Source: Atribacterota bacterium (lineage in GTDB: Bacteria > Atribacterota > Phoenicimicrobiia > Phoenicimicrobiales > Phoenicimicrobiaceae). Taken from it: DNA of 35,813 bases. This document shows positions 3,560 to 35,813 of this stretch, piece by piece. Under the pieces are notes generated by a model, which made no database searches, was not told the DNA's origin, and worked only from the letters and a program-made list of their open reading frames with translations. The number at the start of each line of letters is the position of its first letter. Within the stretch, counting starts at the first letter, position 1. The stretch covers positions 1 to 35,813 of the forward strand of contig DAOUWX010000002.1 in NCBI GenBank assembly GCA_030666935.1. The letters run 5' to 3'. Position numbers and translations under genes: made by a program.

Positions 3560-3603
3560 TATATTTTATAAAACAGAATTTAAAAATAATTAGGAGGTTG
3601 TTT

Positions 3604-4275
3604 ATGGCGGATGTGATTACGAAAATTGAAAGGCCTGAGAAGAAAATATTGGTTCAGCTCGGAGAGATAGCACCCGCTAGTGCGTATGAGGCGCAAGGAA
3701 AGACAGGCGCGATGATGAGTGACATCAAGCCTATATATAGTGGTATGAAAATTTGCGGTCCAGCTATAACGGTGCAGTGTCATCCAGGGGACAATATTAT
3801 GCTACATAAGGCTATTGCCATCGCTCAACCTGGCGATATTATTGTAGCTTGTGTAAGTTATTCAGAGGCTGGGTATTGGGGGGAAGTTTTAACCGTTGCT
3901 GCCCAAGCTATAGGGGTTAGAGGATTGGTTATAGATGGAAGTGTCCGTGATGGGTTGGCTATTAAAAAACGTGGGTTCTCAGTATTTTCTCGAGGCCTAT
4001 GTATGAAAGGAACTGTGAAAGAAACAGTGGGTTTTATTAATTATCCTCTTGTATGTGGGAATGTTTTAATTAATCCAGGGGATATTATACTTGGGGATGA
4101 TGATGGAATAGTAGTTATCCCCAGAGAAAAAGCTCAAGAAACATTGAAGAAATCTCAGGATAGAGAGAAAAGTGAGCAGATGATGATGGAGAAGCTCACA
4201 TCGAGGGAATTAACAACTTTAGAATTATTGGGGCTTGATAAGGTATTAAAAGCAAAAGGGCTTCAAGAAGAGTAA
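3604..4275 (+). CDS. RraA-family protein (4-hydroxy-4-methyl-2-oxoglutarate aldolase / oxaloacetate decarboxylase-like)
   Basis: 'AYEAQGKTGAM', 'GDNIMLHKAI..AQPGDIIV', 'GYWGEVLT', 'GLVIDGSVRD' and 'GDDDGIVVIP' match the RraA/HMG-aldolase fold family. I place the start at ATG 3604, 6 nt after AGGAGG; the tracked TTG at 3598 abuts the RBS. Confidence 0.8.
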   Translation: MADVITKIERPEKKILVQLGEIAPASAYEAQGKTGAMMSDIKPIYSGMKICGPAITVQCHPGDNIMLHKAIAIAQPGDIIVACVSYSEAGYWGEVLTVAAQAIGVRGLVIDGSVRDGLAIKKRGFSVFSRGLCMKGTVKETVGFINYPLVCGNVLINPGDIILGDDDGIVVIPREKAQETLKKSQDREKSEQMMMEKLTSRELTTLELLGLDKVLKAKGLQEE

Positions 4276-4643
4276 TTCTGATAATTTATAATGATATCTC
4301 TTGTAATGTCATAAAGGCGATGACGCTAATTTTACAAGGGTTTATGCAATTTTCTTATTTAAAATTATAATAAAAAACATATAAGATGGCTCAAAAGATT
4401 TTTCCCATATTTTTTAAAAGAAAAAAAATAGATCGTAAGTAGTTAATAGGAGATTAGATTTCCTGATTTTGGAATGAGAAGGATTTATGAAAAATAGAAA
4501 ACAAGACAATGATAAACTTAGATAAGCTTACTTGCGAAGATATTATCAATTGAATGTTAATGATATGAAAGCTTAAAGTTTTATTCGGGAAGTGAATAGT
4601 ATTTAGATCCAGTTGAGTAAAAATAAGACAAGGAAGGAAAGAA

Positions 4644-5696
4644 TTGCCTGAAATGGAAATTAAGATAGAAGAACAAAAGTTAAGAATATTTTGTGAAAAT
4701 ATTTTAAAAAAATCTGGTTTACCCCAAGAAGACGCCTATATAGTTGCCGATTCTCTTATTTTTGCTAATTTAAAAGGAATAGATTCACATGGAATTATGA
4801 GATTTCCTTTTTATTTAGAAAGGTTAAAAAAAGGGGGAACTAAAGCTAATCCAAAAATAAAGAAGGTAAAAGAAAAAGCGGCATCAGCGTTACTTGATGG
4901 TGATAATGGAATGGGGCAAGTAATAGGTAAGTATGCTACAAAATTAGCTATAGAAAAGGCTAAGGAAGTAGGCATTTCTTTTGTAGGGATTAAAGGCAGT
5001 TCTCATTATGGAGTTGCGTCATATTATACTACAAAAATTGCTGAAGTTAATATGATTGGGTTTTCCGTAACTAATAATACTAATAATATGGCTGCATGGG
5101 GAGGATCAAAAGCGGTTATAGGAAATAATCCTCTTTCTATTGCTTGTCCATATAAAGACGGTAAACCAATAGTATTGGATATTTCTATGAGCAATGTAGC
5201 AGGAGGAAAAGTAAGATTAGCGGCAAAAAATGATCAAAATATCCCTAAAGGTTGGATAATAACTAGAAATGGAGAAGATACAGAGGATCCCAGTGATTTA
5301 CCTAAAGGAGGAGCTTTACTTCCTTTTGGAAATCATAAAGGTTATGGATTAGCAGTTATTATTGAAATTTTAGCTGGAGTGCTTACCGGTGCAGGAATGC
5401 TGAAGCAGATTCCATTATGGATTAAGAATGTTGTAGACCCCTTAAATGTGGGGCATTGTTTTGCTGCAATTGATATAGAGGCTTTTATAGATTTAAAAAG
5501 TTTTAAAGAAAGATTAGATTGGGTAGTCCAAGAACTTAAATCATCTCCTCTAGCCGAAGGATCTCATGGGATTTTTATGCCCGGAGAAATAGAATTAGAA
5601 GTTGAAAAGAAAAGAAGAAAAGAGGGAATTCCTATATCAGAAGAAATTTGGCAAGATTTAAGAAAGCTATCTGAGGATTACCAAGAATCTTTATAG
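4644..5696 (+). CDS. Ldh2-family NAD(P)H-dependent 2-hydroxyacid/ketoacid dehydrogenase (malate/L-lactate/sulfolactate/2,3-diketogulonate reductase family)
   Basis: 'HGIMRFPFYLERLKKGG', 'SSHYGVASYY', 'GNNPLSIA', 'GGKV' and 'FGNHKGYGLAVIIEILAG' are hallmarks of the Ldh_2 family. The TTG start lies 6 nt after AGGAAGG; ATG 4653 is an alternative. Confidence 0.82.
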   Translation: MPEMEIKIEEQKLRIFCENILKKSGLPQEDAYIVADSLIFANLKGIDSHGIMRFPFYLERLKKGGTKANPKIKKVKEKAASALLDGDNGMGQVIGKYATKLAIEKAKEVGISFVGIKGSSHYGVASYYTTKIAEVNMIGFSVTNNTNNMAAWGGSKAVIGNNPLSIACPYKDGKPIVLDISMSNVAGGKVRLAAKNDQNIPKGWIITRNGEDTEDPSDLPKGGALLPFGNHKGYGLAVIIEILAGVLTGAGMLKQIPLWIKNVVDPLNVGHCFAAIDIEAFIDLKSFKERLDWVVQELKSSPLAEGSHGIFMPGEIELEVEKKRRKEGIPISEEIWQDLRKLSEDYQESL

Positions 5697-5786
5697 AAAT
5701 TACATATTCGAGAAATAATGTTACAAAAGGAAAAAACTATTTTCATTTAAGTAGTATTTTCAGGTTACATAAAAGAGAAGTGATGA

Positions 5787-5963
5787 ATAAGGAATATTTT
5801 ATGGAAAATTTACGAAAATACCAAAGCAGATTTTATAAGAACTGTATTAGAAGGAATTGGATATTCTTTTTGGCATAATATTGAATTTCTGGTACAGGTG
5901 TCGAGCGAAGCTCGAAGAGTGGAAAAGGTGCCACGGACTTGTCCGTGGGATTTCCACAAATAA
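5787..5963 (+). pseudogene. Relic of an FGGY carbohydrate kinase (C-terminal domain fragment)
   Basis: The open frame translates to '..NTKADFIRTVLEGIGYSFWHNIEFL..'. This parallels 'TRSDIVRSILEGVAYGIREIMEIIEG' in the intact kinase at 9163-10671. A shifted frame just downstream reads 'EGGGKLFKIKF' (compare 'VGGGAKNDLWNQIKADV'). No start and no N-terminal domain. Confidence 0.6.
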
Positions 5964-6039
5964 GAAGGAGGTGGTAAGCTGTTTAAAATAAAATTTAATA
6001 AAAGCAAAAAAATAAAAAATTAGAAAGGAGTTTTGTAAA

Positions 6040-7056
6040 ATGAAAAATTCATCAAAAAAAGCATTAATCATTACATTTGTAGTAATTTTCTTGTTGACCA
6101 TGTTTGCAGTGATCAGCATTGCTGCAACAGAAGATACCATGTTAATTAGACTAGCTGTTGGCGACCCTATTCACTCATCTGTAGGTGTGACTGCGAAGCA
6201 TTTTGCTGAAAAAGTGTACGAAGATACAAATGGTCAGCTCAAAGTAGAGGTGTTTGCAGATGGTGTGTTGTTTGGTGGTGATCAAAACGCAGCTGTAAAT
6301 ATGGTTGAGGATGGATCTCTGGATGCAACTATTCTATCTACTTCTGTTTACGCATCATTTGAAAAACGCATGAATGCGATAAGTCTTCCTTATCTTTTTA
6401 AGGATTACGATGACTTTAAAAACTATCTGACAGGTGAACTAGGGAAAGAACTGCTGGCTTCCTTGGAAAAGTTTAATACAGTGGGTCTGGCGCTTATGAT
6501 TCGTACATTTAGAAATGTTACTAACTCTAAGCGACCGATATACACACCTAAAGATCTTAAGGGATTAAAGCTCCGTGTTCCCAATAACAAGCTTTGGGTG
6601 GAGTTCTTTGGCCCTCTTGGTGCTGATCCCACACCAATGGACTTTAAAGAAGTTTATACTGCCCTTCAGCTAAAAACCATTGATGGTCAGGAAAATCCGG
6701 TTGAAGTACCACTGGCGAATAAATTTTATGAAGTACAGGAATATCTTTCTTTAACTAATCACATTGCAGATGGGTATATCCTCGCTTTTAATCAAGACCT
6801 CTGGAAAAAACTTAATTCTGAAACACAGGAGATTGTACGCAGAGTGGCCGAAGAGACAGCTCAGTTTAAGCTTGAGTATGACCTAAGTGAGGAAGAGAAA
6901 ATTATCAAAGAGCTCGAAGCCAAAGGAATGAAAGTGAATCGATTGACTGCAGAGCAAAAAAACGCTTTTCAAGAAGAGGCTTTAAAATTGTATCCAAAAT
7001 TTGAGTCTTTGGTTGGCTCGGATTTTATGGAAAAGTCTATTAAATTTTTTAAATAA
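6040..7056 (+). CDS. dctP: TRAP transporter substrate-binding protein (DctP family), system 1
   Basis: Signal-anchor N-terminus. 'RTFRNVTNSKRPIYTPKDLKGLKLRVP' and 'DGQENP' are DctP-family motifs. Followed by dctQ and dctM. Confidence 0.9.
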   Translation: MKNSSKKALIITFVVIFLLTMFAVISIAATEDTMLIRLAVGDPIHSSVGVTAKHFAEKVYEDTNGQLKVEVFADGVLFGGDQNAAVNMVEDGSLDATILSTSVYASFEKRMNAISLPYLFKDYDDFKNYLTGELGKELLASLEKFNTVGLALMIRTFRNVTNSKRPIYTPKDLKGLKLRVPNNKLWVEFFGPLGADPTPMDFKEVYTALQLKTIDGQENPVEVPLANKFYEVQEYLSLTNHIADGYILAFNQDLWKKLNSETQEIVRRVAEETAQFKLEYDLSEEEKIIKELEAKGMKVNRLTAEQKNAFQEEALKLYPKFESLVGSDFMEKSIKFFK

Positions 7057-7203
7057 AAATAAAGATTAGCGTATAATTTTTTTTGGAAATGCACTGAGAA
7101 AAGTATTTCTTAAAGGTAAGTAAAAAAAAGATAAATGGTGAATGCCTCCTTCAATTATGAGTGTTGGAGGGGGCTTTCCCATTATAAGAGGGAGATTAAT
7201 GAT

Positions 7204-7710
7204 ATGCCCAAGCGAGGACTTTTGTGGGTTGTAGTCGATAAATTTATCTTTATTGGCGTTGCTGGTCTGTTTATTACAGTCTTATTACAAGTAACTACAC
7301 GATTATTAGGACAGTCTCTGCCGTGGACTGAAGAGCTAACACGTAACTTGTTTATATTAGTAGTTTTTCTTGGCATGGCATCAGGTTTTCGTTCAGCAGA
7401 GCATACTAGGATTACTTTTATGCTAAAACTGATCCCTAAGAAATTGAAAAAAATTCAATTATACATTTATTTTTTTGGTGATATTATATTCTTTGTACTG
7501 CTTGCGTATCAAGGTTTATTTTTGTCCCTAAGACAATTTAGAAATGGAGAGTTCTCCCCAGCTTTGGGGCTTCCAATGTATTTTGTTACGATTCCTATTT
7601 GTATCGGTGCTGTTTTAGCGATTATTGCTCTTGTACAGAGTGTTTTTATCGATAAATCTACACGACAACAATTGATGAATGAAGATGATCTTGGGAGTGA
7701 TGAGCTATGA
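7204..7710 (+). CDS. dctQ: TRAP transporter small permease (DctQ family), system 1
   Basis: Four predicted TM helices and ~170 aa. The ATG at 7204 is preceded by a GAGGGAG RBS; the tracked start at 7135 adds a non-hydrophobic extension with no RBS. The stop overlaps the dctM start (ATGA). Confidence 0.82.
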   Translation: MPKRGLLWVVVDKFIFIGVAGLFITVLLQVTTRLLGQSLPWTEELTRNLFILVVFLGMASGFRSAEHTRITFMLKLIPKKLKKIQLYIYFFGDIIFFVLLAYQGLFLSLRQFRNGEFSPALGLPMYFVTIPICIGAVLAIIALVQSVFIDKSTRQQLMNEDDLGSDEL

Positions 7711-8978
7711 GCATAATGTTGCTAGGTATATTTTTTATATTAAGTCTTTTGGGGGTTCCGCTGGCAATCTCACTTGGTCTTTCTATAGCCGTAACACTAG
7801 TAATGTTTGATCTCTCTATGGCAGTAATAGCACGCTTAATGTATACGTCTATGAATAGTTACTTGCTTGTTGCAATTCCTCTTTTTATTCTTGCAGGTGC
7901 TATTATGGAAAAGGGTGGGATTTCTAATTACATCTTTAATGCGGCTAATGCTGTTGTTGGGAGATGGCGTGGTGGCTTAGGACATGTGAATATTATAGCT
8001 AGTATGATTTTCGGCGGGATTTCCGGGTCATCGATTGCTGATGTGGCAAGCTTGGGGCTGTTAGAAATAAAGGCTATGACTGAACACAAATATCCTAAAC
8101 CTTATTCTGCGGCAGTTACAATGGTCACTTCTACATTAGCATCTATAGTACCACCCAGTATATTAATGATTATAGCTGCAGTCTCTGCCGAACAATCGGT
8201 AGGAAAGGCATTGGCAGGTGGTTTAGGCCCTGCAATGCTTCTCGTCTTAATGTTTATGGGACTGAATTACTTTCTATCTGTTAGAAATGGGTATGGTGAT
8301 TCTATAACGATGACAGCAAAAGAAATCCTATATTCAATTATTATCGCAATACCAGCACTTTTTTCACCTCTAATTGTTCTGGGAGGGATATTTCTTGGTT
8401 TTGTAACACCTACCGAGGGAGCCGCAGTGGCCGTTTTTTATACGCTTATAATATCATCATTTATTTACAGGCCAATATCGTGGAAAGAATTTTCTAAAAT
8501 GATAATAAAAACAGGAATAACGACAGGAACTATCCTTCTTATTGCCATGACTGCTTCTGTAGCTACTTACATTTTTACGATTGATCAGTTGCCGGCTAAG
8601 GTGAGTAATATAATTTTGTCTTTTTCACAAAATCCTAGAATAGTCTTACTCTTAATGGGAGCGGTATTTATCATTAGTGGTATGTTTATGGATATAATTG
8701 CGACAATACTTATAATTACCCCGGTTCTGATGCCTACTGCCGTTGCTGTAGGTGTAGACCCAATACACTTTGTTGTTTTTATGGTGGCTTCTTTGGCCAT
8801 TGGTCTTTCTACTCCGCCGGTAGGAGTGTGTTTGTTTACAACTTCAGTTATTTCTAATCTAAAAATTGAAAGGATTATAAAAGCTGCGGTTCCCTACTAT
8901 ATTATATTGTTTATTTTCGTAATAATTATTGCATTATTTCCAAATATTACGCTTTGGCCCGTAAAGTTGCTTATGTAG
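7707..8978 (+). CDS. dctM: TRAP transporter large permease (DctM family), system 1
   Basis: 423-aa polytopic membrane protein translationally coupled to dctQ, with 'GGISGSSIADVAS' and 'PPVGVCLF' DctM motifs. Confidence 0.9.
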   Translation: MSIMLLGIFFILSLLGVPLAISLGLSIAVTLVMFDLSMAVIARLMYTSMNSYLLVAIPLFILAGAIMEKGGISNYIFNAANAVVGRWRGGLGHVNIIASMIFGGISGSSIADVASLGLLEIKAMTEHKYPKPYSAAVTMVTSTLASIVPPSILMIIAAVSAEQSVGKALAGGLGPAMLLVLMFMGLNYFLSVRNGYGDSITMTAKEILYSIIIAIPALFSPLIVLGGIFLGFVTPTEGAAVAVFYTLIISSFIYRPISWKEFSKMIIKTGITTGTILLIAMTASVATYIFTIDQLPAKVSNIILSFSQNPRIVLLLMGAVFIISGMFMDIIATILIITPVLMPTAVAVGVDPIHFVVFMVASLAIGLSTPPVGVCLFTTSVISNLKIERIIKAAVPYYIILFIFVIIIALFPNITLWPVKLLM

Positions 8979-17810: not shown

Positions 17811-18819
17811 ATGACTATTAAAATAGTTGATACTACACTAAGGGATGGTAGTAATGCAATTAATTTTCAATTTGGGAGAAAATTGACTCAAAATATTCTA
17901 GTTGGATTGGAGCAAGTAGGGATTGAATGGATAGAGATAGGCCACGGTTTGGGTTTAGGTGCTAGCAAGAAGTGTGGGAAACCAGCACTTCTATCTGATT
18001 AGGAATATATCGATTTAACAAAAGTTTGCTTAAAAAAGGCAAATTTCGGATTTATTTTTTTACCAAAATTTGGGGGAGAAAAAAGACATAAAGCTTATAT
18101 CGAAAAAAGGTGTAAATTTTATACGAATTGGCTTAAATATAACTGAGGTTGACCAAATTGAAGAATATATAAAATATGCCAAAAATCAAGGTTTATTAAT
18201 TTTTATAGCTTTAATGAAAGCAGATGCTATTAATAATAAAGCAAAAGAATACGTAAGAATATTGCAAAAACTAGGTGAGTGGGGAGTAGACCTCATAACT
18301 TTAATGGATTCTGTAGGAAGAATGTTACCCGAAGATGTTAAAAAATAAATTAATTTGGGGAAAACAAATATAGAAACATCATTAGGTTTTTACTCTCATA
18401 ATAATTTACAGTTAGCAGTTACAAATGTTATTTCTGCAATAGAATCTGGTGCAGATGCAATATATGTTTCGGTGGGAGGCTTAGGGAGAAGCGCAGGTAA
18501 TGCACCAACAGAAATTTTAGTAATTTTTTTAGAAAAATACGGATGGGGTAAATTATTAGACTATAAAATTTTATCGGATCTAAGTGATAAATATATTTTT
18601 CCCCTAATTAAAGAAGAAAATCGGTTTTCATCAAAAACATTAACCTTTGGTTTTGCTGGATTTCATTCGAGTTTCTTTCTGTTAATTCAGAAGGGTTGCA
18701 AAAAGCATCCCTCTATAGATTATAGAGATGTAGTATTGGCAGTAAATGCGAAGGAAAAAATTAATGTAACTGAGGGACTAGTTAATGAAGTGATTGGTGA
18801 AATTTTACAAAGCAAATAA
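17811..18819 (+). pseudogene. 4-hydroxy-2-oxovalerate aldolase-like (DmpG / HMGL-like TIM barrel) gene disrupted by two in-frame stops and one frameshift
   Basis: 'IVDTTLRDGSNAINFQF', 'IEIGHGLGLG', 'LMDSVGRMLPEDV', 'GFYSHNNLQLAVTNVISAIESGADAIYVSVGGLGRSAGNAPTEILV' and 'GFAGFHSSFF' follow DmpG order but are spread over three ORFs. There is a TAG at 18001-18003, a frame change within the TTTGGGGGAGAAAAAAG run (18069-18085) and a TAA at 18349-18351. Confidence 0.8.
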
Positions 18820-28745: not shown

Positions 28746-28934
28746 AGTTATAGTTATTTTTAAGATAACTGTAAATATTATTTGAAATTAGTAAAATAAT
28801 TATGGTACAGAAAGGAGAAATTTATAATAGGTAAAAAAGATTATTATATAAAGTCAGTTATTAAATCCTTAAATATCTTAAATTTATTTTCTGAATCAAG
28901 ATGTGAATTATCCATATCTGAAATAAGCAAAGCA

Positions 28935-29591
28935 TTGGATTTAGGTATTAGCACAACTTACCGATTGCTTGGTACATTAAGATATAAAAATTATATTGAA
29001 CAGAATCCTCTAAATTTAAAATATAAATTAGGTTATGAATTTCTAAATAAAGCTTTTTTAGTTTCTAACGATGAAGCAAATATTGTAAAAAAATCGATGC
29101 CCTATTTAGAAAAATTACGTGATTTTACCAAAGAAAGTATTAGCTTAGCAGTTTTAAATGGCAGAGATATAGTTTATATCGCTAAAGCAGATAGTTATGA
29201 AGTTTTAAGAACGAATATTGAAATAGGTAAAAAATTTCCTGCTTATAAAACCGCATTAGGAAAAATATTATTAGCATACCTTTCCCCAGAGCAATTTAAT
29301 CGCCTATTTGATAAAGATAAACTTCTTATTAGCGATCCCTGTTTTAACTTAAACATTTCTGAGTTTAAACAATATTTGGAAAAGGCAAAAGAAGAAGGAA
29401 TTACTTTTGATGATGAAGAAGCTACTCCCGGGATAAGATGCATAGCTGCACCTATAGTAGATGCAACTGGTGAAGTATCGACAGCGATAAGTATTAGTGG
29501 CCCTACAATACGTTTTACTTTAGAGAAAATAGATTTATGCAAGAGAGAACTCGTTAAAGTTGCCAAAGGAATATCTTTTAAAAGTGTATAG
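28935..29591 (+). CDS. IclR-family transcriptional regulator; the frame is open from 28800 and already encodes the wHTH, but has no canonical start upstream of TTG 28935
   Basis: 'GKILLAYL' and 'PGIRCIAAPIVDATGEVSTAISISGP' are IclR effector-domain motifs. The upstream in-frame translation '..GKKDYYIKSVIKSLNILNLFSESRCELSISEISKAL' is the missing N-terminal half of the wHTH. Confidence 0.75.
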   Translation: MDLGISTTYRLLGTLRYKNYIEQNPLNLKYKLGYEFLNKAFLVSNDEANIVKKSMPYLEKLRDFTKESISLAVLNGRDIVYIAKADSYEVLRTNIEIGKKFPAYKTALGKILLAYLSPEQFNRLFDKDKLLISDPCFNLNISEFKQYLEKAKEEGITFDDEEATPGIRCIAAPIVDATGEVSTAISISGPTIRFTLEKIDLCKRELVKVAKGISFKSV

Positions 29592-29742: not shown

Positions 29743-29808
29743 TTTAAAAAATTAATAAATATTTTAAAAAAAAGAAGGATTTTTCAAACACCGTGTGGTA
29801 TATTAAAA
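29743..29808 (+). promoter_or_regulatory. Promoter-like box, copy 3 (core AAGAAGGATTTTT at 29772-29784), ~85 nt upstream of the second GntR gene
   Basis: TTTAAAAAATTAATAAATATTTTAAAAAAAAGAAGGATTTTTCAAACACCGTGTGGTATATTAAAA aligns with copies 1 and 2. Confidence 0.35.
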
Positions 29809-29816
29809 ATAGTAAA

Positions 29817-29837
29817 TTGGGTCACCCAGTAACCCAA
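29817..29837. promoter_or_regulatory. Inverted repeat TTGGGTCAC-CCA-GTAACCCAA (8/9 arm match); candidate GntR autoregulatory operator
   Basis: Read from the sequence. Contains the GT-Nx-AC cores typical of GntR/FadR operators. Sits between the putative -10 (TATATT) and the GntR start codon at 29861. Confidence 0.45.
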
Positions 29838-29860
29838 TCACATAATAAAAAGAGGCAAGT

Positions 29861-30553
29861 ATGGAATTTAAAAAAATTATTCCTATCCGTTTATATGAGA
29901 ATGCAATAGAACAAATTATGGATTTAGTCAAAAGAAGCGAACTGAAGCCCGGGGATAAACTTCCACCGGAGAGAGAATTGGCTAAAAAATTGTCTATCAG
30001 TAGAAATTCCTTACGGGAGGCTTTCCGAGTTTTAGAATCAAGAGGCTTAATTAAAAGCAAACCCGGCGGAGGAAGATATATTCGAGAGATAAGAAAGAAT
30101 GGCCATAACAATACAGAAAATATTATCTTAGGTTTAGAAAAATCTTCTATTTTAGAACTTTTAGAAGCAAGAGAAATGTTTGAGGTAAAAATTGCTAAAA
30201 TTGCTGCCCAGAGAGCCACTGCTGAAGATACAGAATTAATTGAACGGGCTCTAAATAAAATGAACGAGGAAGAAGAGCTAAAATATGGTAAAGAAACAGA
30301 ATCAGATACCGAATTTCATTTGGCTATTGCGGGTGCGTCTCATAATTTCGTCTTTGTTAATATAATAAAATTACACTTGGATCTGCTAAAAGAAACTCGG
30401 GGTAAGACCTGGAAAATACCGGGAAGACGAGAAAAACAATATCAAGAACATCAGTCAATATTACAGGCTATTAAAGAACACAATAGCAAAAAAGCCGGAG
30501 AGGCTATGCTGAAACATTTGGGAAATGTAAGAAAAGTTTTACTGAAGACATAA
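29861..30553 (+). CDS. GntR-family transcriptional regulator (FadR/FCD subfamily)
   Basis: 'LPPERELAKKLSISRNSLREAFRVLESRGLIKSKPGGGRYI' wHTH, and a helical C-terminal domain with 'FHLAIA' and 'EHQSILQAI'. Confidence 0.9.
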   Translation: MEFKKIIPIRLYENAIEQIMDLVKRSELKPGDKLPPERELAKKLSISRNSLREAFRVLESRGLIKSKPGGGRYIREIRKNGHNNTENIILGLEKSSILELLEAREMFEVKIAKIAAQRATAEDTELIERALNKMNEEEELKYGKETESDTEFHLAIAGASHNFVFVNIIKLHLDLLKETRGKTWKIPGRREKQYQEHQSILQAIKEHNSKKAGEAMLKHLGNVRKVLLKT

Positions 30554-30648
30554 AATAAAACCGAAAATCGTATTAAGAATTAAAAAAAGCAGAACAAAAA
30601 TTGGAATATTTAAAGAATATTATTTAGTAAAAGTGAGGAGATTATACT

Positions 30649-32007
30649 ATGAAAGAAATGAGAGTTTTATCACCCGTAGGTATGTTGGGATATGGTTTCC
30701 CAGCAGAATCTTTTCAGAAAGGTTTAGAAAAGAAACCCCATGTTATAGCTGCCGATGCTGGTTCTACTGATGCCGGTCCCCATAAATTAGGAGCAGGTGT
30801 GGGCATTGTAAGCAAAGAAGCAACTAAAAAAGATCTTACTTTAATGTTAACAGCAGGATGTAAAAATAAAATACCGGTTATTATTGGTTCTGCCGGAGGT
30901 TCCGGAGCAGAAGTACATCTTAATTGGACCTCAGAAATAGTAAAAGAAATTGCAAAAGAGCAAAACCTACACTTTAAGATGGCTTTAATTCATGCAGAAG
31001 TTGAAAAAGATTATCTTAAAAAGAAGTTAACCGAAGAGAAAATAAAACCTTTAGGCCCTGTTCCCGAATTAACTTCTAAAGATATAGAAGAAGCTACTCG
31101 AATTGTAGCGGTAATGGGCACACACTCTCATATAAAAGCCTTGGAGATGGGGGCAGAGGTTATTATTGCCGGTCGTTCCAACGACCCGGCTATGTTTGCC
31201 GCTCTTCCCATTAAGGAAGGATATGATCCCGGACTGGCTCTACATATGGGAAAGATTTTAGAATGTGGGGCTATGGCTTCTACCCCGGGGACTACCTCTG
31301 ATTGTATGATGGCATATTTAAGAGAGGATTATTTTATAGTAGAACCGACTAATGCCCTGCGAAAATGTATCCCCAGCACAGTAGCTGCCCATACTCTTTA
31401 TGAAAAATCAAGCCCACTTCATATTATTGGCCCGGAAGGAGTGGTTGACGTTACCGGATGTAAATTTGAGCAATATAGCGAAAGGGCAGTAAAGGTATCG
31501 GGCTCCAAACTGAAGAAGAGCGAAACCATTAATATAAAATTAGAAGGGGCAAGTAAAGTGGCTTATCGGACTATATGTATTGCCGGCTTGAGAGACCCAA
31601 TTATGATTAAACAGATTGATGAATGTGAAAAACATGTTCGTGACACTGTGCTTACTTACTTTAACAATATTTCTCCGGAAGATTACAGCTTAATCTTTCA
31701 TGTTTACGGGAGGAACGGAGTTATGGGAGAATTAGAGCCTCGAAAAGAGATTACCTCTCATGAACTTTGTCTGATCTTGGAAGTCGTAGCCAAAGACCAG
31801 GAGCTGGCTAATACTATTTGTGCTTTTGCTCGTTCTACTTTAATGCATTATTCTTACAAGGGGCGCGTTGCTACTGCCGGTAATTTAGCTTTTCCTTATG
31901 CTCCTTCAGATATACCTACCGGAGCGGTGTATAAATTTAATATTCATCATTTAGTAGAAATCGATGACCCCGACGAACTTTTTTCCATAGAAATGGTAGA
32001 AGTTTAA
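30649..32007 (+). CDS. AtuA-like / DUF1446-family protein (function unknown)
   Basis: 452 aa. The size, the N-terminal 'RVLSPVGMLGYGF....VIAADAGSTDAGP' layout and, mainly, the immediately following DUF4387-type small partner fit the DUF1446 + DUF4387 gene pair as I recall it. Needs HMM confirmation. Confidence 0.55.
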   Translation: MKEMRVLSPVGMLGYGFPAESFQKGLEKKPHVIAADAGSTDAGPHKLGAGVGIVSKEATKKDLTLMLTAGCKNKIPVIIGSAGGSGAEVHLNWTSEIVKEIAKEQNLHFKMALIHAEVEKDYLKKKLTEEKIKPLGPVPELTSKDIEEATRIVAVMGTHSHIKALEMGAEVIIAGRSNDPAMFAALPIKEGYDPGLALHMGKILECGAMASTPGTTSDCMMAYLREDYFIVEPTNALRKCIPSTVAAHTLYEKSSPLHIIGPEGVVDVTGCKFEQYSERAVKVSGSKLKKSETINIKLEGASKVAYRTICIAGLRDPIMIKQIDECEKHVRDTVLTYFNNISPEDYSLIFHVYGRNGVMGELEPRKEITSHELCLILEVVAKDQELANTICAFARSTLMHYSYKGRVATAGNLAFPYAPSDIPTGAVYKFNIHHLVEIDDPDELFSIEMVEV

Positions 32008-32040
32008 AATAATAAGGAATTTAAAAAGGAGAATATATAA

Positions 32041-32370
32041 ATGACTAAAGAAGTTTCTATTATAGATTTAGTAAAAGTAATTAGAAGTAAAAATGCCGGT
32101 CCTTTTGAGGTGACCTTTGATATAATTTTTAAAGATAAGGAAACTTACGAAAAAGTTAAGAAAACCAAAGTAATTACCAAAGAACTTATTGCAAAACTCT
32201 ACCATGTTCCCATTGAAAAAGTTCTTTATTTTGTGGAATTTGATCCTGCTAATGCTATAAAGGCAACTATTGTAAGACCGGTGGATTCGGGGAGTATCGG
32301 GGAGACCGATGTCTATGGTGCTCAACAACATGCGCCACTTTTAGAGATCAAAATACCTTTCGAGGAATAA
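32041..32370 (+). CDS. DUF4387-family small protein (partner of AtuA-like proteins; function unknown)
   Basis: 109 aa. 'IRSKNAGPFEVTFDIIF', 'AIKATI.RP' and 'GETDVYGAQQHAPLL' resemble the conserved blocks of DUF4387 as I recall them. Confidence 0.6.
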   Translation: MTKEVSIIDLVKVIRSKNAGPFEVTFDIIFKDKETYEKVKKTKVITKELIAKLYHVPIEKVLYFVEFDPANAIKATIVRPVDSGSIGETDVYGAQQHAPLLEIKIPFEE

Positions 32371-32380
32371 GGAGGAAAAA

Positions 32381-32911
32381 ATGAGAGAAGATATATTAAA
32401 ATTTATTCCGGAATTTAATTTAATCAAAGATTTAGATTTGAAGGAAAAGGTTTTAAAAGTTTGGGAGATTGCTCTTGTTGCCGGAGGATGGGAAGTGAGT
32501 GACCTGCAAAGAATGCCCTTTACTTTATTAATTGAATCTTGTCCGTGTAATATGATTGAACATATCAGGGGAGTAGTAAATGTTTCTGTGAATGCTACGG
32601 AGGCTCTTCAAAGTATCTATGAAGATAAAGTGAAAATAAATGAGGATTACCTTGTTGCCGGGGCATTACTTCACGATATTGGAAAATTAGTAGAATATAA
32701 AGAGGAGAATGGAAAATTTATTCAGAGCAATTTAGGGAAGTTAGTTCGTCACCCCATATCAGGAGTGGGTCTTTGTTACAGTCAGGAAATTCCGGAAGAA
32801 GTAATGCATATTATTGCCTCCCATTCCTGGGAGGGAGATCGTTCAAAGCGAACTCCGGAAGCCATTATTGTCCATCATGCTGATTTTACCAACTTCGAAC
32901 AATTTAAATAA
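32381..32911 (+). CDS. HD-domain (HDIG-type) metal-dependent phosphohydrolase
   Basis: 'LLHDIGK', an upstream 'EHIRGV' His and downstream 'HH.D' residues; 176 aa. Starts 10 nt after the DUF4387 stop. Confidence 0.75.
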   Translation: MREDILKFIPEFNLIKDLDLKEKVLKVWEIALVAGGWEVSDLQRMPFTLLIESCPCNMIEHIRGVVNVSVNATEALQSIYEDKVKINEDYLVAGALLHDIGKLVEYKEENGKFIQSNLGKLVRHPISGVGLCYSQEIPEEVMHIIASHSWEGDRSKRTPEAIIVHHADFTNFEQFK

Positions 32912-32924
32912 AAATAAATGATTA

Positions 32925-33031
32925 TACAGATTAAAAACACAGATTACACAGATAAATAAGCAGAAATAATTATATAAATTAAGAGAATATTATAATTAAT
33001 CAGTGTAATCTATTGTAATCAGTGTAATCAC
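32925..33031. promoter_or_regulatory. Opposed heptamer arrays: ACAGAT(TA) x3 (32926, 32939, 32948) and TGTAATC x3 (33004, 33014, 33023; ~10-bp phasing), ending 17 nt before the dehydratase start codon
   Basis: Read from the sequence. The 13-mer AATCAGTGTAATC occurs twice (32998-33010, 33017-33029). Left-arm ACAGATTACAC is nearly complementary to right-arm GTGTAATCTAT. Confidence 0.45.
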
Positions 33032-33048
33032 TTCAAGGAGGCTATAAA

Positions 33049-34308
33049 ATGGGAAAGACTTTTGCAGAGAAGATATTAGCCCTTAAATCGGGTAAAGAAA
33101 GTGTAGTTACCGGAGAAATTGTGACTGTTTCTCCGGATATAGTAATGTCTCACGATAATACTGCCGCTATAGCAAAAAAATTCAAACAAATTGGAATTAA
33201 TAAAGTAAAAAATCCGGAGAAGATAATAATTCCCCTGGATCATTGTGTTCCTGCAGCAACAGAAAAATATGCTACCAATCATAAAGAGATAAGAGAATTT
33301 ATCCGGGAACAGAAAATTGAGAATTTTTATGATATTAATATCGGAGTCTGTCATCAGGTTCTTCCGGAAAAAGGACACATCATCCCCGGGACTATGATTT
33401 TAGGAGCAGATTCCCATACTACAACCCATGGAGCATTTGGTGCTTTTTCAACCGGGATTGGTAGAAGTGAAGTAGCTTCTATCTGGGCTACAGATGAAAT
33501 CTGGCTCAGAGTGCCGGAGACCATCAAGGTAAATATTGAAGGGGAAATTCCTCTCGGAATATATCCCAAGGACATAATCCTCCACATTGTTGGGGATTTA
33601 GGTGCGGATGGAGCACTGTATAAAGCGGTGGAATTTAGCGGGAAAGTAATTAGGGAAATGAGTATTGGCGGTAGGATGACCTTATGTAATATGGCAGTGG
33701 AAATGGGAGCTAAGATTGGCTATGTAGAACCGGATGAAAAAACTATTCAGTGGCTTGCTCCGATGACTAATAAAAAATACGAAATAATAAAGTCAGATGC
33801 TGATGCTGAGTTTGAAAAGATTTTAGATTACGATATAAGTGATTTAGAACCTCAAATTGCCTGCCCTCACACCGTAGACAATGTAAAACCTGTTTCGAAA
33901 GTGGTAGGGACCAGAATTGACCAGGCATTAATTGGGACTTGTACTAATGGGAGATTGGAAGATTTAAAAGTTACCAGCGAGATTCTTCGTGGTAAAAAGA
34001 TTTATAACAGAGTTAGACTTTTAGTCTTTCCTGCCTCGATGGAGGTTTTTGCCCAGGCGATGGGATTAGGAATCCTTCAAGAATTGGTTAAAAGTGGGGC
34101 AGTAATCATGAATCCAGGATGCGGTCCTTGTTTGGGAGCTCACGAAGGAGCCTTAGCTCCGGGAGAGGTTTGTTTGAGTACTGCTAATAGAAATTTCAAG
34201 GGAAGAATGGGGTGTAAAGAGGCAGAAGTTTATTTAGCCAGTCCGGCAACCGTTGCTATCTCTTCCCTTTATGGTGAAATTACTGATATAAGGGGGGATT
34301 TAAAATGA
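33049..34308 (+). CDS. leuC: Aconitase-family dehydratase large subunit (3-isopropylmalate / homoaconitate / citramalate isomerase type, archaeal-type LeuC/HacA)
   Basis: 419 aa. 'MSHDNT', 'GADSHTTTHGAFGAF', and Fe-S ligand contexts 'GTCTNGRLEDL', 'NPGCGPCLGAHEG' and 'STANRNFKGRMG'. The physiological substrate is not deducible. Confidence 0.85.
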   Translation: MGKTFAEKILALKSGKESVVTGEIVTVSPDIVMSHDNTAAIAKKFKQIGINKVKNPEKIIIPLDHCVPAATEKYATNHKEIREFIREQKIENFYDINIGVCHQVLPEKGHIIPGTMILGADSHTTTHGAFGAFSTGIGRSEVASIWATDEIWLRVPETIKVNIEGEIPLGIYPKDIILHIVGDLGADGALYKAVEFSGKVIREMSIGGRMTLCNMAVEMGAKIGYVEPDEKTIQWLAPMTNKKYEIIKSDADAEFEKILDYDISDLEPQIACPHTVDNVKPVSKVVGTRIDQALIGTCTNGRLEDLKVTSEILRGKKIYNRVRLLVFPASMEVFAQAMGLGILQELVKSGAVIMNPGCGPCLGAHEGALAPGEVCLSTANRNFKGRMGCKEAEVYLASPATVAISSLYGEITDIRGDLK

Positions 34309-34808
34309 GTATTAAAGGGAAAGTGTGGAAATATGGTGATGATGTAAATACCGATGTTATCTTTCCGGGGAAATATACTTATACTATAACTGACCCCAAA
34401 GAGATGGCAATTTATGCCCTGGAAGATATTGATCCGAAATTTGCCAAAGAAGTTAAAAAGGAAGATATTATTGTCGCGGGAAGGAATTTTGGCTGTGGTA
34501 GTTCTCGAGAACAAGCCGCAACCTGTTTAAAATATGCTGGTGTAGGGGCAATTATTGCTAAATCATTTTCTAGAATATTTTTCCGAAATGCTATTAACCA
34601 GGGACTTCCTTTGGTTCAATGCAAAGAAGCAGTGGAGAATATATCTTCAGGTGAATTAATTGAAATTAATTTTGAAAAAGGAAAATTATCGTGTAAGAAG
34701 GGAGTTTTTGATTTTCTTCCTTTACCGGAATCGGTATTAGGAATTCTTAAAGATGGGGGACTTATTCCTCATATTAAGAAAATATTGAAAATAGAGAAGG
34801 GAGAATAA
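34305..34808 (+). CDS. leuD: Aconitase-family dehydratase small subunit (LeuD/HacB type)
   Basis: 167 aa with '[20 protein letters not shown]' and '[13 protein letters not shown]'. ATGA overlap with the large subunit. Confidence 0.85.
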
Positions 34809-34810
34809 AA

Positions 34811-35813
34811 ATGGCAAAATATAAGATAGCCTGGCTGCCGGGCGATGGAATCGGAAATGAAGTAATGGAGGCAGCGAGGATTGCATTGGATGTGCTAAAA
34901 CTGGATGCTGATTATATACCTGGCGATATGGGTTGGGAATTCTGGAAAAAAGAAGGAAACCCTTTACCTAATAGAACTATAAAACTTCTTAAAGAGACTG
35001 ATTGCTGTCTCTTTGGAGCGATAACCTCCAAGCCTAAAGAAGAAGCAGAAAAGGAACTTACCCCTGAGCTTAAAGGAAAAGGTTATGTTTATTCAAGTCC
35101 TATTGTAAGACTACGACAGGAATTTAAATTACATACTAATCTGAGACCGTGCAAAGCCTACAAAGGAAATCCACTGAATTATAGAGATGACATAGATTTG
35201 GTAGTTTTTCGGGAAAATACCGAAGGGTTATACAGTGGAGTGGAATTTCATCCTCTACCCAAAGAAGTAATGGATTCTCTTTTAGAAAATCATCCTAAAA
35301 TGAAAAGGTTTATGAATACCTCTTTAGAAGATATTGCTTTGTCTTGTAGAATCTTTACTCGGAAAGCTTGCCAATCGATTATTCGTCAGGGTTTTGAATA
35401 TGCCAAGAAGTTTAACAGAAATTCAGTTACTGTTATTGAGAAACCAAATGTAATCAGAGAGACCAGTGGATTGATGGTAAGAGAAGCCCGCAAGATTGCC
35501 TTGGAATATCCCGGAATCGAACTCTGGGAGACTAACATAGATGCAATGTGTATGTGGCTGGTCAAGAATCCTCAAAATTATAGTGTTCTGGTTTCTTCCA
35601 ATATGTTCGGAGATATAGTTTCTGATCTTTGTGCTCAATTAATAGGCGGTTTAGGGTTTGCCTCCAGTGCCAACATTGGAGATGATTATGCCCTCTTTGA
35701 ACCAACTCATGGCTCTGCTCCTAAATATGCAGGGAAATTCAAAGTAAATCCCATGGCGATGCCTTTAACGGTTAAATTAATGTTGGATTATTTAGAAGAC
35801 AAAGAATTGGCTC
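34811..35813 (+). CDS. Isocitrate/isopropylmalate/homoisocitrate dehydrogenase-family beta-decarboxylating dehydrogenase; 3' end off-window
   Basis: Not in the supplied ORF track because there is no stop in the window. I translated from ATG 34811, which lies 2 nt after the LeuD-type stop and has a GAAGGGAG RBS: 'KIAWLPGDGIGNEV', 'NLRPCKAY', 'VVFRENTEGLYSG' and 'NMFGDIVSDLCAQLIGGLGFASSANIG' family signature. No stop through 35813. Confidence 0.85.
   Translation, partial: MAKYKIAWLPGDGIGNEVMEAARIALDVLKLDADYIPGDMGWEFWKKEGNPLPNRTIKLLKETDCCLFGAITSKPKEEAEKELTPELKGKGYVYSSPIVRLRQEFKLHTNLRPCKAYKGNPLNYRDDIDLVVFRENTEGLYSGVEFHPLPKEVMDSLLENHPKMKRFMNTSLEDIALSCRIFTRKACQSIIRQGFEYAKKFNRNSVTVIEKPNVIRETSGLMVREARKIALEYPGIELWETNIDAMCMWLVKNPQNYSVLVSSNMFGDIVSDLCAQLIGGLGFASSANIGDDYALFEPTHGSAPKYAGKFKVNPMAMPLTVKLMLDYLEDKELA

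Follow-up and report, generated by a model that had tools for sequence, protein, structure and literature searches.

The stretch of DNA considered here, hereafter the window, comprises positions 1 to 35,813 of contig DAOUWX010000002.1 from the Atribacterota bacterium assembly GCA_030666935.1, 35,813 nucleotides (nt) in all, and its end is occupied by seven co-directional genes on the + strand that combine a two-subunit lyase, an aconitase-family enzyme and a decarboxylating dehydrogenase with a gene for a GntR regulator. The first gene (29861..30553) encodes a FadR-subfamily regulator of 230 amino acids (aa), with a winged helix-turn-helix and an FCD domain. It is followed by the genes for a CmlA-like (AtuA/DUF1446) C-C lyase large subunit of a sister clade that is called type 2 below (30649..32007; 452 aa) and for its CmlB-like (DUF4387) small subunit (32041..32370; 109 aa), and then by a gene for a stand-alone HD/HDIG-domain metal-dependent hydrolase (32381..32911; 176 aa). 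The large and small subunits of an aconitase-family enzyme come next, archaeal-type LeuC/HacA-like (33049..34308; 419 aa) and LeuD/DmdB-like (34305..34808; 167 aa) and designated LeuC' and LeuD' here, and the series closes with an Iso_dh-family beta-decarboxylating dehydrogenase (34811..35813) that is cut by the window end and is 376 aa long in relatives. Pfam bears out the family assignments of the initial annotation, namely GntR plus FCD, AtuA/DUF1446 (E 1.5e-23), DUF4387 (E 7e-43), HD, Aconitase, Aconitase_C and Iso_dh, and the HD protein also matches TIGR00277 (HDIG). The spacing reported there is likewise reproduced from the open reading frame (ORF) list and its translations: 95, 33, 10 and 137 nt, a 4-nt overlap and finally 2 nt.

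Related loci were assembled by our own ORF calling together with blastp and tblastn on fetched loci, each about 20 kb at most. The order GntR, DUF1446, DUF4387, HD, aconitase large subunit, aconitase small subunit, Iso_dh is kept in at least 10 of them (L004-L010, L013, L016 and L017), at 74-96% identity, and L013 keeps it although its isomerase genes are just 71-77% identical. The adjacency of the DUF1446 and DUF4387 genes with leuCD-like genes thus recurs in relatives, and because the order is identical in at least 10 independent Atribacterota assemblies the arrangement is not a product of chance. Copies of the large DUF1446 protein that are 92-96% identical occur in metagenome-assembled and single-cell genomes of Atribacterota (Candidatus Atribacteria/Caldatribacteriota, Sediminicultor and Phoenicimicrobium), and within this survey the gene combination is found only in that phylum. 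The gaps of 33 and 10 nt, the 4-nt overlap and the 2-nt gap point to one transcription unit, as does the spacer between the HD and LeuC' genes, which is only 15 nt long in L007 and L017. The seven genes are read here as one operon in Atribacterota, probably repressed by the product of its own first gene.

The regulator carries an N-terminal GntR winged helix-turn-helix (PF00392) and a C-terminal FCD domain (PF07729), as FadR-subfamily members do, and its gene is kept at the head of the cluster in related loci. Its closest NCBIfam models are LldR, NanR, PdhR and GlcC, all scoring below cut-off. Upstream of it on the + strand, sequence reading identifies a promoter-like element with an extended -10, TGTGGTATATT (29794-29804), that is conserved in relatives, and a palindrome-like operator candidate, AATTGGGTCACCCAGTAACCCAAT (29815-29838), that ends 22 nt before the GntR start codon. 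Of 12 Atribacterota loci, 10 have this -10 and the TTGGGT-N9-ACCCAA element ahead of the GntR gene; in the window the element occurs only once, and a more distant GntR-lyase locus has ATTGGT...ACCAAT at the corresponding place. The half-sites of the candidate resemble the ATTGGT..ACCAAT boxes of the PdhR/LldR type, and a FadR-type GntR repressor with such an operator is typical of catabolic operons. The regulator looks like an autoregulated, acid-responsive repressor, unlike the usual control of leu and ilv genes. An Rfam scan found no element inside the operon, neither riboswitch, T-box nor leader, and generic promoter and terminator scans gave chance-level output.

The initial annotation held that DUF1446 and DUF4387 proteins were without demonstrated activity, a statement that is now outdated. 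Against the PDB the large subunit gives a single match, chain A of 9erq/9evf, 'Citramalate lyase, subunit A (cmlA) / AtuA family protein' (E 1.7e-140), and the small subunit also gives a single match, chain B of 9erq, 'Citramalate lyase, subunit B (cmlB) / DUF4387' (E 1e-30). An AlphaFold (AF2) model of the large subunit built from 76 homologues (predicted local distance difference test, pLDDT, 92.2) superposes on 9evf_A with a template modelling (TM) score of 0.95 and a root-mean-square deviation of 1.8 Å, and a fold search with this model found no further structural neighbour in the PDB at E<=0.001. The entry 9EVF is entitled 'Citramalate lyase - ADP - pyruvate complex'. Cml of Raoultella planticola, used in a 2026 preprint as a gift of the Berg laboratory, is described there as splitting citramalate directly into pyruvate and acetate, the working isomer being the (S)-citramalate derived from mesaconate, and 20 mM acetate may thermodynamically disfavour the cleavage (bioRxiv 10.64898/2026.01.16.699985). 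A DUF1446 gene downstream of that for methylaspartate ammonia-lyase (mal), often mis-annotated as that enzyme, had been noted in 2015 (PMC4682846). In the library that was searched, no primary paper on CmlAB was found, only this note and the preprint, and nothing on these lyase-operon genes in Atribacterota.

With CmlAB of R. planticola (9ERQ, 9EVF) the window pair shares the two-gene architecture, the fold and a sequence identity of about 49-57%, and in every locus the small-subunit gene adjoins that for the large subunit, with a gap of 33 nt in the window. It differs in its placement in a sister clade, in 11 discriminating residues and in having no glutamate mutase neighbours. Judged by its sequence, the pair would act as a C-C lyase of two subunits and belongs to the CmlAB family, so that what had been the central unknown of the locus now falls within a known enzyme family, and for that reason the finding is not categorically new. 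The other namesake of the large subunit, AtuA of the Pseudomonas acyclic terpene utilisation cluster, has the Pfam family PF07287 in common with it, but the Pfam match here is partial (the best stretch being residues 67-210) and atu genes are absent. A role as the AtuA of terpene utilisation is ruled out by the lack of atu genes at the locus, and the name is uninformative on function in this context.

The family is large (6825 matches at E<=1e-10 among 8000 candidates scored), and its large subunits form two motif types that are reciprocally monophyletic in a neighbour-joining tree of 201 sequences. Type 1, marked by DPGP[YH]YLGAGxSFTD and ..PGSGS, includes the solved enzyme and all pairs found in a methylaspartate context. 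Type 2, in which that signature is absent and DAGPHKLGAGVGIVS and ..PGTTS are found, comprises the window lyase and all its close Atribacterota relatives, along with members assigned to Thermotogae, Clostridia, Spirochaetales and deltaproteobacteria. The large subunits of both types agree in 130 conserved columns, which include the DAGSTD..GP and H.GKILEC motifs, and 11 columns that are at least 90% conserved within each type differ between the two: A11G, P42A, Y46K, S52G, F53I, T54V, D55S, A207G, S215T, G216T and N337Y, the change from SFTD in type 1 to GIVS in type 2 being among them. These discriminating residues lie directly beside the invariant DAGSTD..GP and H.GKILEC motifs.

The genes that accompany the pair were compared across the surveyed loci. 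A gene for methylaspartate ammonia-lyase and/or MutE lies near the pair in 46 of 84 context-classified loci (Bacillota, Bacteroidota and others), and in these 46 methylaspartate-type loci, which are of type 1, glutamate mutase genes (GlmS, MutL, MutE) precede the lyase. No type-2 locus in the survey has glutamate mutase, one of them carrying a methylaspartate ammonia-lyase homologue without the mutase, and the methylaspartate context as a whole (GlmS, MutL, MutE, methylaspartate ammonia-lyase and mesaconase) is found neither in the window nor in any of the 10 LEU-type loci, those with LeuCD-like genes. A plain citramalate lyase of the methylaspartate pathway is ruled out, since clade, motif and context all differ. 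The neighbours of type 2 include FumAB-like class I hydratases sharing only 27-31% identity with the ones found near type 1, Ldh_2 and D-2-hydroxyacid dehydrogenases, RraA-type aldolase/oxaloacetate decarboxylase, NAD_binding_2/DUF1932 dehydrogenases, PrpD-like proteins, TctCBA or TRAP transporters and enoate-reductase-like flavoproteins, and one member of the clade sits in an amidohydrolase/enoate-reductase-like cluster. On proteobacterial plasmids, pairs with the type-1 motif also have genes for class I fumarate hydratase and for aldehyde or alcohol dehydrogenases next to them, and a third motif type, seen in Variovorax, has genes for a Tct binding protein, RraA and a member of the aconitase family as neighbours. 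Across loci the shared theme is the pairing of an AtuA/DUF4387 lyase with an enoate hydratase of either the FumA type or the aconitase type. Within Atribacterota, lyases at 83% identity are found either with FumAB and Ldh_2 genes (L002) or, as in the window, with LeuCD-like and Iso_dh-like genes.

Two proteins without a Pfam match were encountered in these comparisons. One of about 316 aa is encoded directly downstream of cmlB in 35 type-1 loci (L059 11703-12653, L038 11780-12721 and 33 more) and is absent from type-2 loci; it could be a third component or a transporter. The other, of 306 aa, is 82% identical between two type-2 loci (L002/L003 461-1381; L089 7451-8371), both of which also carry FumAB-like and PrpD-like genes, and is a candidate pathway component.

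LeuC' retains the three Fe-S cysteines (GTCTN, GCGPC) and has as its best PDB match the large subunit of the Methanocaldococcus jannaschii isopropylmalate/citramalate isomerase (E 3e-140), homoaconitase following at E 4.7e-120. It passes only the family and subfamily models NF001614, TIGR01343 and TIGR02086; the LEU2 and HacA equivalogs fail, with a score of 485 against a cut-off of 611 for TIGR02083. LeuD' passes TIGR02087, named in NCBIfam for the LeuD/DmdB family, and fails the leud and HacB equivalogs (181 against 246 for TIGR02084). For the homoaconitase models HacA_Meth and HacB the scores of LeuC' and LeuD' are 521 against 550 and 168-177 against 230, respectively. The specificity loop of LeuD', YTYTIT, carries one residue more than its counterparts in solved small subunits (YL-VY, YNLT and YLRT in 3vba, 1v7l and 2pkp) and has no Arg; in alignment to those subunits it shows neither the isopropylmalate isomerase loop YLV[YM] nor the Arg of the homoaconitase loop YLRT, and it is conserved in 11 Atribacterota loci. 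Pyrococcus horikoshii LeuD, which has YNLT, reportedly serves homoaconitase, so that the loop is not decisive as a test for HacB. The neighbourhood of LeuC' and LeuD' includes no leuA, leuB or ilv gene, either in the window or across the more than 10 related loci, each about 20 kb at most.

The dehydrogenase falls below every NCBIfam equivalog or subfamily cut-off, including those for LeuB (192 against 353 for TIGR00169 and 282 against 410 for TIGR02088). Its top NCBIfam score is for AksF2 homoisocitrate dehydrogenase (299 against 540), and its best PDB matches are NAD-dependent isocitrate dehydrogenase (NAD-IDH) and homoisocitrate dehydrogenase (HICDH). The two insertions that had been noted as foreign to canonical LeuB are both present in the translation, and a complete scan over 1.84 billion cluster representatives, with subsequent alignment, shows them to be traits of a separate Iso_dh subfamily, which is defined by both insertions and the motif Y-x-S-P-[IV]-[VI]-[RQ]-L-R. 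This subfamily also occurs in Gemmatimonadota, KSB1, Calditrichota and Chloroflexi, and the five members scanned with NCBIfam were all without an assignment; gene neighbourhoods in Gemmatimonadota, KSB1 and one further lineage were uninformative. All 120 homologues listed are close Atribacterota relatives at 77% identity or more, and the complete gene is seen in L004 (14096-15226). The roles of the residues at the specificity positions are those known from the Iso_dh family. At the positions of L90/L91 in Thermus thermophilus isopropylmalate dehydrogenase (IPMDH) the enzyme has Ile-Val (..SSPIVRLR..), a hydrophobic pair as in LeuB; at those of Ser113/Asn115/V116 in Escherichia coli isocitrate dehydrogenase (IDH) the Ser is kept and the Asn is replaced by Ile, all IDH cut-offs being failed as well; and Val stands where Thermus HICDH, with Ile-Arg, has Arg85. 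Set against Leu-Leu in IPMDH, Asn-Val in IDH and Ile-Arg in HICDH, the Ile-Val pair is suggestive of a pocket that favours an alkyl side chain over a distal carboxylate. An R85V mutant of HICDH is said to retain homoisocitrate activity.

Fusion proteins were also seen in this subfamily. Eight proteins of about 715-765 aa (P0247, P0249, P0251, P0254, P0256, P0257, P0260 and P0263) join its Iso_dh domain to CinA-N/MoCF_biosynth, a domain related to nicotinamide mononucleotide deamidase and ADP-ribose pyrophosphatase, and we know of no described function for the fusion. In a further protein (P0267) an RraA-like domain is fused to a dehydrogenase of the subfamily.

LeuC', LeuD' and the dehydrogenase could simply be ordinary leucine or isoleucine enzymes to which the lyase and HD genes are merely adjacent, and the passing of family-level hidden Markov models for the large and small subunits of archaeal-type isopropylmalate isomerases, the intact Fe-S cysteines and catalytic motifs and the hydrophobic pocket of the dehydrogenase would all fit such a coincidence. 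It is nevertheless improbable in view of the failure of all LeuC, LeuD and LeuB equivalog cut-offs, the atypical LeuD' loop with its insertion (YTYTIT), the separate subfamily of the dehydrogenase, whose members in other phyla stand alone or are fused to CinA-N or RraA domains, the lack of leuA and ilv genes in the window and in those related loci, more than 10 in number, and the tight packing of these genes with the lyase under one regulated promoter. The initial annotation had also reported that the window holds no leuA/cimA-type synthase, and this stands. The sole HMGL-like sequence (17811-18819) is broken into three ORFs, with one frameshift and one in-frame stop, and when joined gives its top score to 4-hydroxy-2-oxovalerate aldolase (200 bits against a cut-off of 229), LeuA, CimA and NifV scoring far lower. 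A hidden LeuA or CimA is ruled out by these scores, and the broken gene is probably a pseudogene or a sequencing error. In agreement with the initial annotation, this is not a standard leucine locus: there is no synthase, control is by a GntR regulator, no equivalog cut-off is reached by the LeuC-, LeuD- and LeuB-like proteins, and the genes form a tightly coupled unit that is conserved in relatives.

One possible explanation, which we favour tentatively and place somewhat short of probable, is that the operon encodes a '2-alkylmalate' module independent of coenzyme A (CoA), in which lyase, isomerase and decarboxylating dehydrogenase would act in a net catabolic or interconverting manner. In the first step the lyase would interconvert a 2-hydroxy-2-substituted succinate of the citramalate type with a 2-oxoacid of the pyruvate type and acetate, without a thioester. 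The Fe-S LeuCD-like enzyme would then interconvert the 2-substituted malate and the 3-substituted malate by way of a cis-enoate of the citraconate type, and the Iso_dh enzyme the 3-substituted malate and the next-higher 2-oxoacid, with CO2 and NAD(P)H. This would be the citramalate/isopropylmalate sequence with a lyase replacing the acetyl-CoA-dependent synthase; a shared 2-alkylmalate intermediate is suggested because the lyase occupies the place that cimA or leuA takes in elongation operons. The likeliest substrates would be those of the series pyruvate + acetate <-> citramalate <-> 3-methylmalate <-> 2-oxobutyrate + CO2, with homologous pairs as an alternative, and the overall reaction would be 2-oxoacid(n) + acetate + NAD+ <-> 2-oxoacid(n+1) + CO2 + NADH. 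As no thioester is spent, the overall sequence should be near equilibrium, an estimate made from the energetics of the synthase-based pathway and in keeping with what the preprint says of acetate, and its direction would be set by metabolite and redox ratios. Net breakdown or interconversion is favoured by the PdhR/LldR-like GntR repressor, by the catabolic genes of the neighbourhood (TRAP transporters, transaminases, RraA aldolase, Ldh_2 and phosphoenolpyruvate carboxykinase, PEPCK) and by the absence of biosynthetic partners. The net use of the module would then be the conversion of branched or unsaturated dicarboxylates of the C5 type (citramalate, citraconate or methylmalate type), or of 2-oxoacids such as 2-oxobutyrate, to pyruvate and acetate. 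The gene families, the lyase clade, the synteny and the packed arrangement behind a joint promoter are shown directly by the data, and the substrate, the coupling of the three activities and the direction are inferred.

Several points weigh against this module. The lyase lies outside the characterised clade, in its sister clade, and its substrate may therefore not be citramalate. Among its clade-specific residues a Lys is gained and an Asp lost, which would suit a substrate with an extra carboxylate, and type-2 members adjoin TctABC transporters, RraA-type oxaloacetate decarboxylase/aldolase and Ldh_2 genes. The characterised lyase follows a mesaconase and acts on (S)-citramalate, and the isomer used by LeuCD-type enzymes is (R)-citramalate. 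Were flux to enter at the enoate, lyase and dehydrogenase would compete for isomers of one pool. Finally, the solved complex 9evf holds adenosine diphosphate (ADP) besides pyruvate, though the reaction is described as a plain cleavage.

The same enzymes might be used anabolically, the lyase serving as a CoA-independent synthase of citramalate from pyruvate and acetate and LeuC'D' and the dehydrogenase pulling flux to 2-oxobutyrate for isoleucine, at a saving of one acetyl-CoA for each molecule made, in a habitat poor in energy and rich in acetate. The order lyase, isomerase large subunit, small subunit, dehydrogenase mirrors that of cimA/leuA-leuC-leuD-leuB operons, no synthase gene is present in the window or the related loci, LeuC'D' is closest to a biosynthetic isopropylmalate/citramalate isomerase, and the remark in the preprint that acetate disfavours cleavage implies a reaction near equilibrium. 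We nonetheless regard biosynthesis as distinctly unlikely, since the FadR-type repressor and PdhR/LldR-like operator are of a kind typical of catabolic operons, Rfam found no T-box or leader, no ilv genes are nearby, and the dehydrogenase subfamily is not a LeuB. By our own estimate the equilibrium concentration of citramalate would be micromolar, and the mismatch between (S)- and (R)-citramalate applies here too.

In relatives the cluster runs on past the position at which the window ends, with genes for a PrpD-like protein, two proteins of the saccharopine dehydrogenase fold and a class III transaminase of the GABA (gamma-aminobutyrate)/aminoadipate type. The MmgE/PrpD protein is very divergent (109 bits against a PrpD cut-off of 575), its gene lying 68-329 nt from that of the dehydrogenase, and the first saccharopine-dehydrogenase-fold protein has as its best PDB match PH1688/3abi (E 2e-67), which we take to be L-lysine 6-dehydrogenase. 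At the other end of the window an RraA-family gene that passes the curated cut-off for 4-carboxy-4-hydroxy-2-oxoadipate aldolase/oxaloacetate decarboxylase is followed by Ldh_2 dehydrogenase and TRAP transporter genes (3598-8978), and lyases of type 2 from other phyla (L086, L095) likewise have RraA and Ldh_2 genes beside them.

These neighbours bear on a tricarboxylate version of the pathway, in which the lyase would cleave citrate to oxaloacetate and acetate, or homocitrate to 2-oxoglutarate and acetate, LeuC'D' would be an aconitase or homoaconitase aided by the PrpD-like dehydratase, and the dehydrogenase would act on isocitrate or homoisocitrate; together with the lysine-6-dehydrogenase-like and aminotransferase genes this could amount to a reversed alpha-aminoadipate route from lysine or to a B12-free fermentation of glutamate or citrate. 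Y46K and D55S add positive charge beside the invariant DAGSTD..GP, type-2 members adjoin TctCBA, RraA-type aldolase/oxaloacetate decarboxylase, Ldh_2 and FumAB-like genes, and PEPCK, RraA and Ldh_2 genes lie within the window itself. The downstream PrpD-like, PH1688/3abi-like, second saccharopine-dehydrogenase-like and GABA/aminoadipate-type transaminase genes of relatives would also find a place in it, as would the dehydrogenase, with its highest score for AksF2 and its PDB matches to NAD-IDH and HICDH. The downstream genes, however, lie outside the window, in a synteny known only among close relatives, and the PrpD-like protein stands as far from its model, and its gene from that of the dehydrogenase, as given above. 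LeuC' is nearer to isopropylmalate/citramalate isomerase than to homoaconitase, the LeuD' loop is without the Arg of the methanogen HacB loop YLRT, and in the dehydrogenase Ile takes the place of IDH Asn115 and Val that of HICDH Arg85. The tricarboxylate version thus appears unlikely. The initial annotation had placed the isomerase, the dehydrogenase and the DUF pair on a citrate-, citramalate- or homocitrate-like acid; its citramalate-like option agrees with the present data, and its emphasis on a polycarboxylate such as citrate or homocitrate is disfavoured by the dehydrogenase and LeuD' residues just named.

A broader role is also conceivable, although we hold it to be rather unlikely, in which the operon would be a thioester-free, near-equilibrium module for 2-oxoacid homologation, providing either an ATP-saving citramalate route to 2-oxobutyrate and isoleucine or, with the downstream genes, a reversed alpha-aminoadipate pathway from lysine to 2-oxoglutarate and acetate, neither of which has been described. 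Parallels with established systems are instructive. The 2-oxoacid elongation of the citramalate/leucine type (CimA or LeuA, LeuCD and LeuB; M. jannaschii 4KP1/3VBA) has the same isomerase and dehydrogenase families and gene order, its M. jannaschii isopropylmalate/citramalate isomerase being closest to LeuC'; the Atribacterota operon differs in having a lyase for the synthase, failed equivalogs, an atypical LeuD loop, another dehydrogenase subfamily and a GntR repressor. Classical citramalate and citrate lyases of the CitDEF type, which depend on an acyl carrier protein, perform the same type of reaction, from a 2-hydroxy-2-(carboxymethyl) acid to a 2-oxoacid and acetate, but are unrelated proteins, and no acyl carrier protein, ligase or CoA-transferase subunits are found here. 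In the nicotinate fermentation of Eubacterium barkeri the LeuCD-type hydratase DmdAB feeds 2,3-dimethylmalate lyase, which yields pyruvate and a short acid. The likeness lies in a LeuCD-type enzyme that feeds a C-C lyase; the E. barkeri lyase, however, belongs to the isocitrate lyase/phosphoenolpyruvate mutase family rather than to AtuA/DUF4387, and no Iso_dh enzyme takes part there.

What is new here is the joining of an uncharacterised sister clade of the CmlAB family with an unassigned dehydrogenase subfamily in one Atribacterota operon, a combination that speaks for a way of handling small organic acids not described so far, and against leucine synthesis. In anoxic subsurface sediments the Atribacterota rank with the most abundant of the uncultured bacteria, and what is known of their carbon metabolism comes mostly from annotation. 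Members of the lyase family, thousands in number, still go by the names 'AtuA family', 'DUF1446' or, in error, 'methylaspartate ammonia-lyase'. A second lyase clade, spread over several phyla and with its own signature near the active site, is linked in one phylum to LeuCD/LeuB-like enzymes and offers a testable handle on the making or breaking of C-C bonds between acetate and 2-oxoacids without CoA. If the module is reversible, it would bear on energy-saving biosynthesis under extreme energy limitation and could supply parts for synthetic pathways, a use to which the characterised clade has already been put.

The HD gene is kept at its position in all LEU-type Atribacterota loci, with flanking gaps down to 10-15 nt on both sides. 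Its product has no sequence match in the PDB, and a single-sequence AF2 model of it was unusable (pLDDT 41); any role for it in the pathway is pure conjecture. The spacer between this gene and the isomerase genes varies from 15 to 620 nt among relatives. The 137 nt that it spans in the window contain, at 32997-33029 and 32937-32957, two exact copies of TAATCAGTGTAATC, 19 nt apart, as well as inverted copies, GATTACACAG, and in view of the variation in length these repeats may have arrived as a small insertion or may serve as an operator within the operon.

Relative to L016, the window carries a variable insert of about 26 kb between PEPCK (1046-2884) and the GntR gene. In L016 itself, a single-cell genome (SCGC AAA255-G05), a group II intron reverse transcriptase/maturase (7549-8961) lies between DDAH-like and GntR genes. 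Just upstream of the operon in the window, an IclR-family ORF (28800-29591) has no ATG, GTG or TTG start before its helix-turn-helix region, and that region is encoded by in-frame sequence reaching back to a stop near 28797, so that an unusual start codon or a truncation may be involved.

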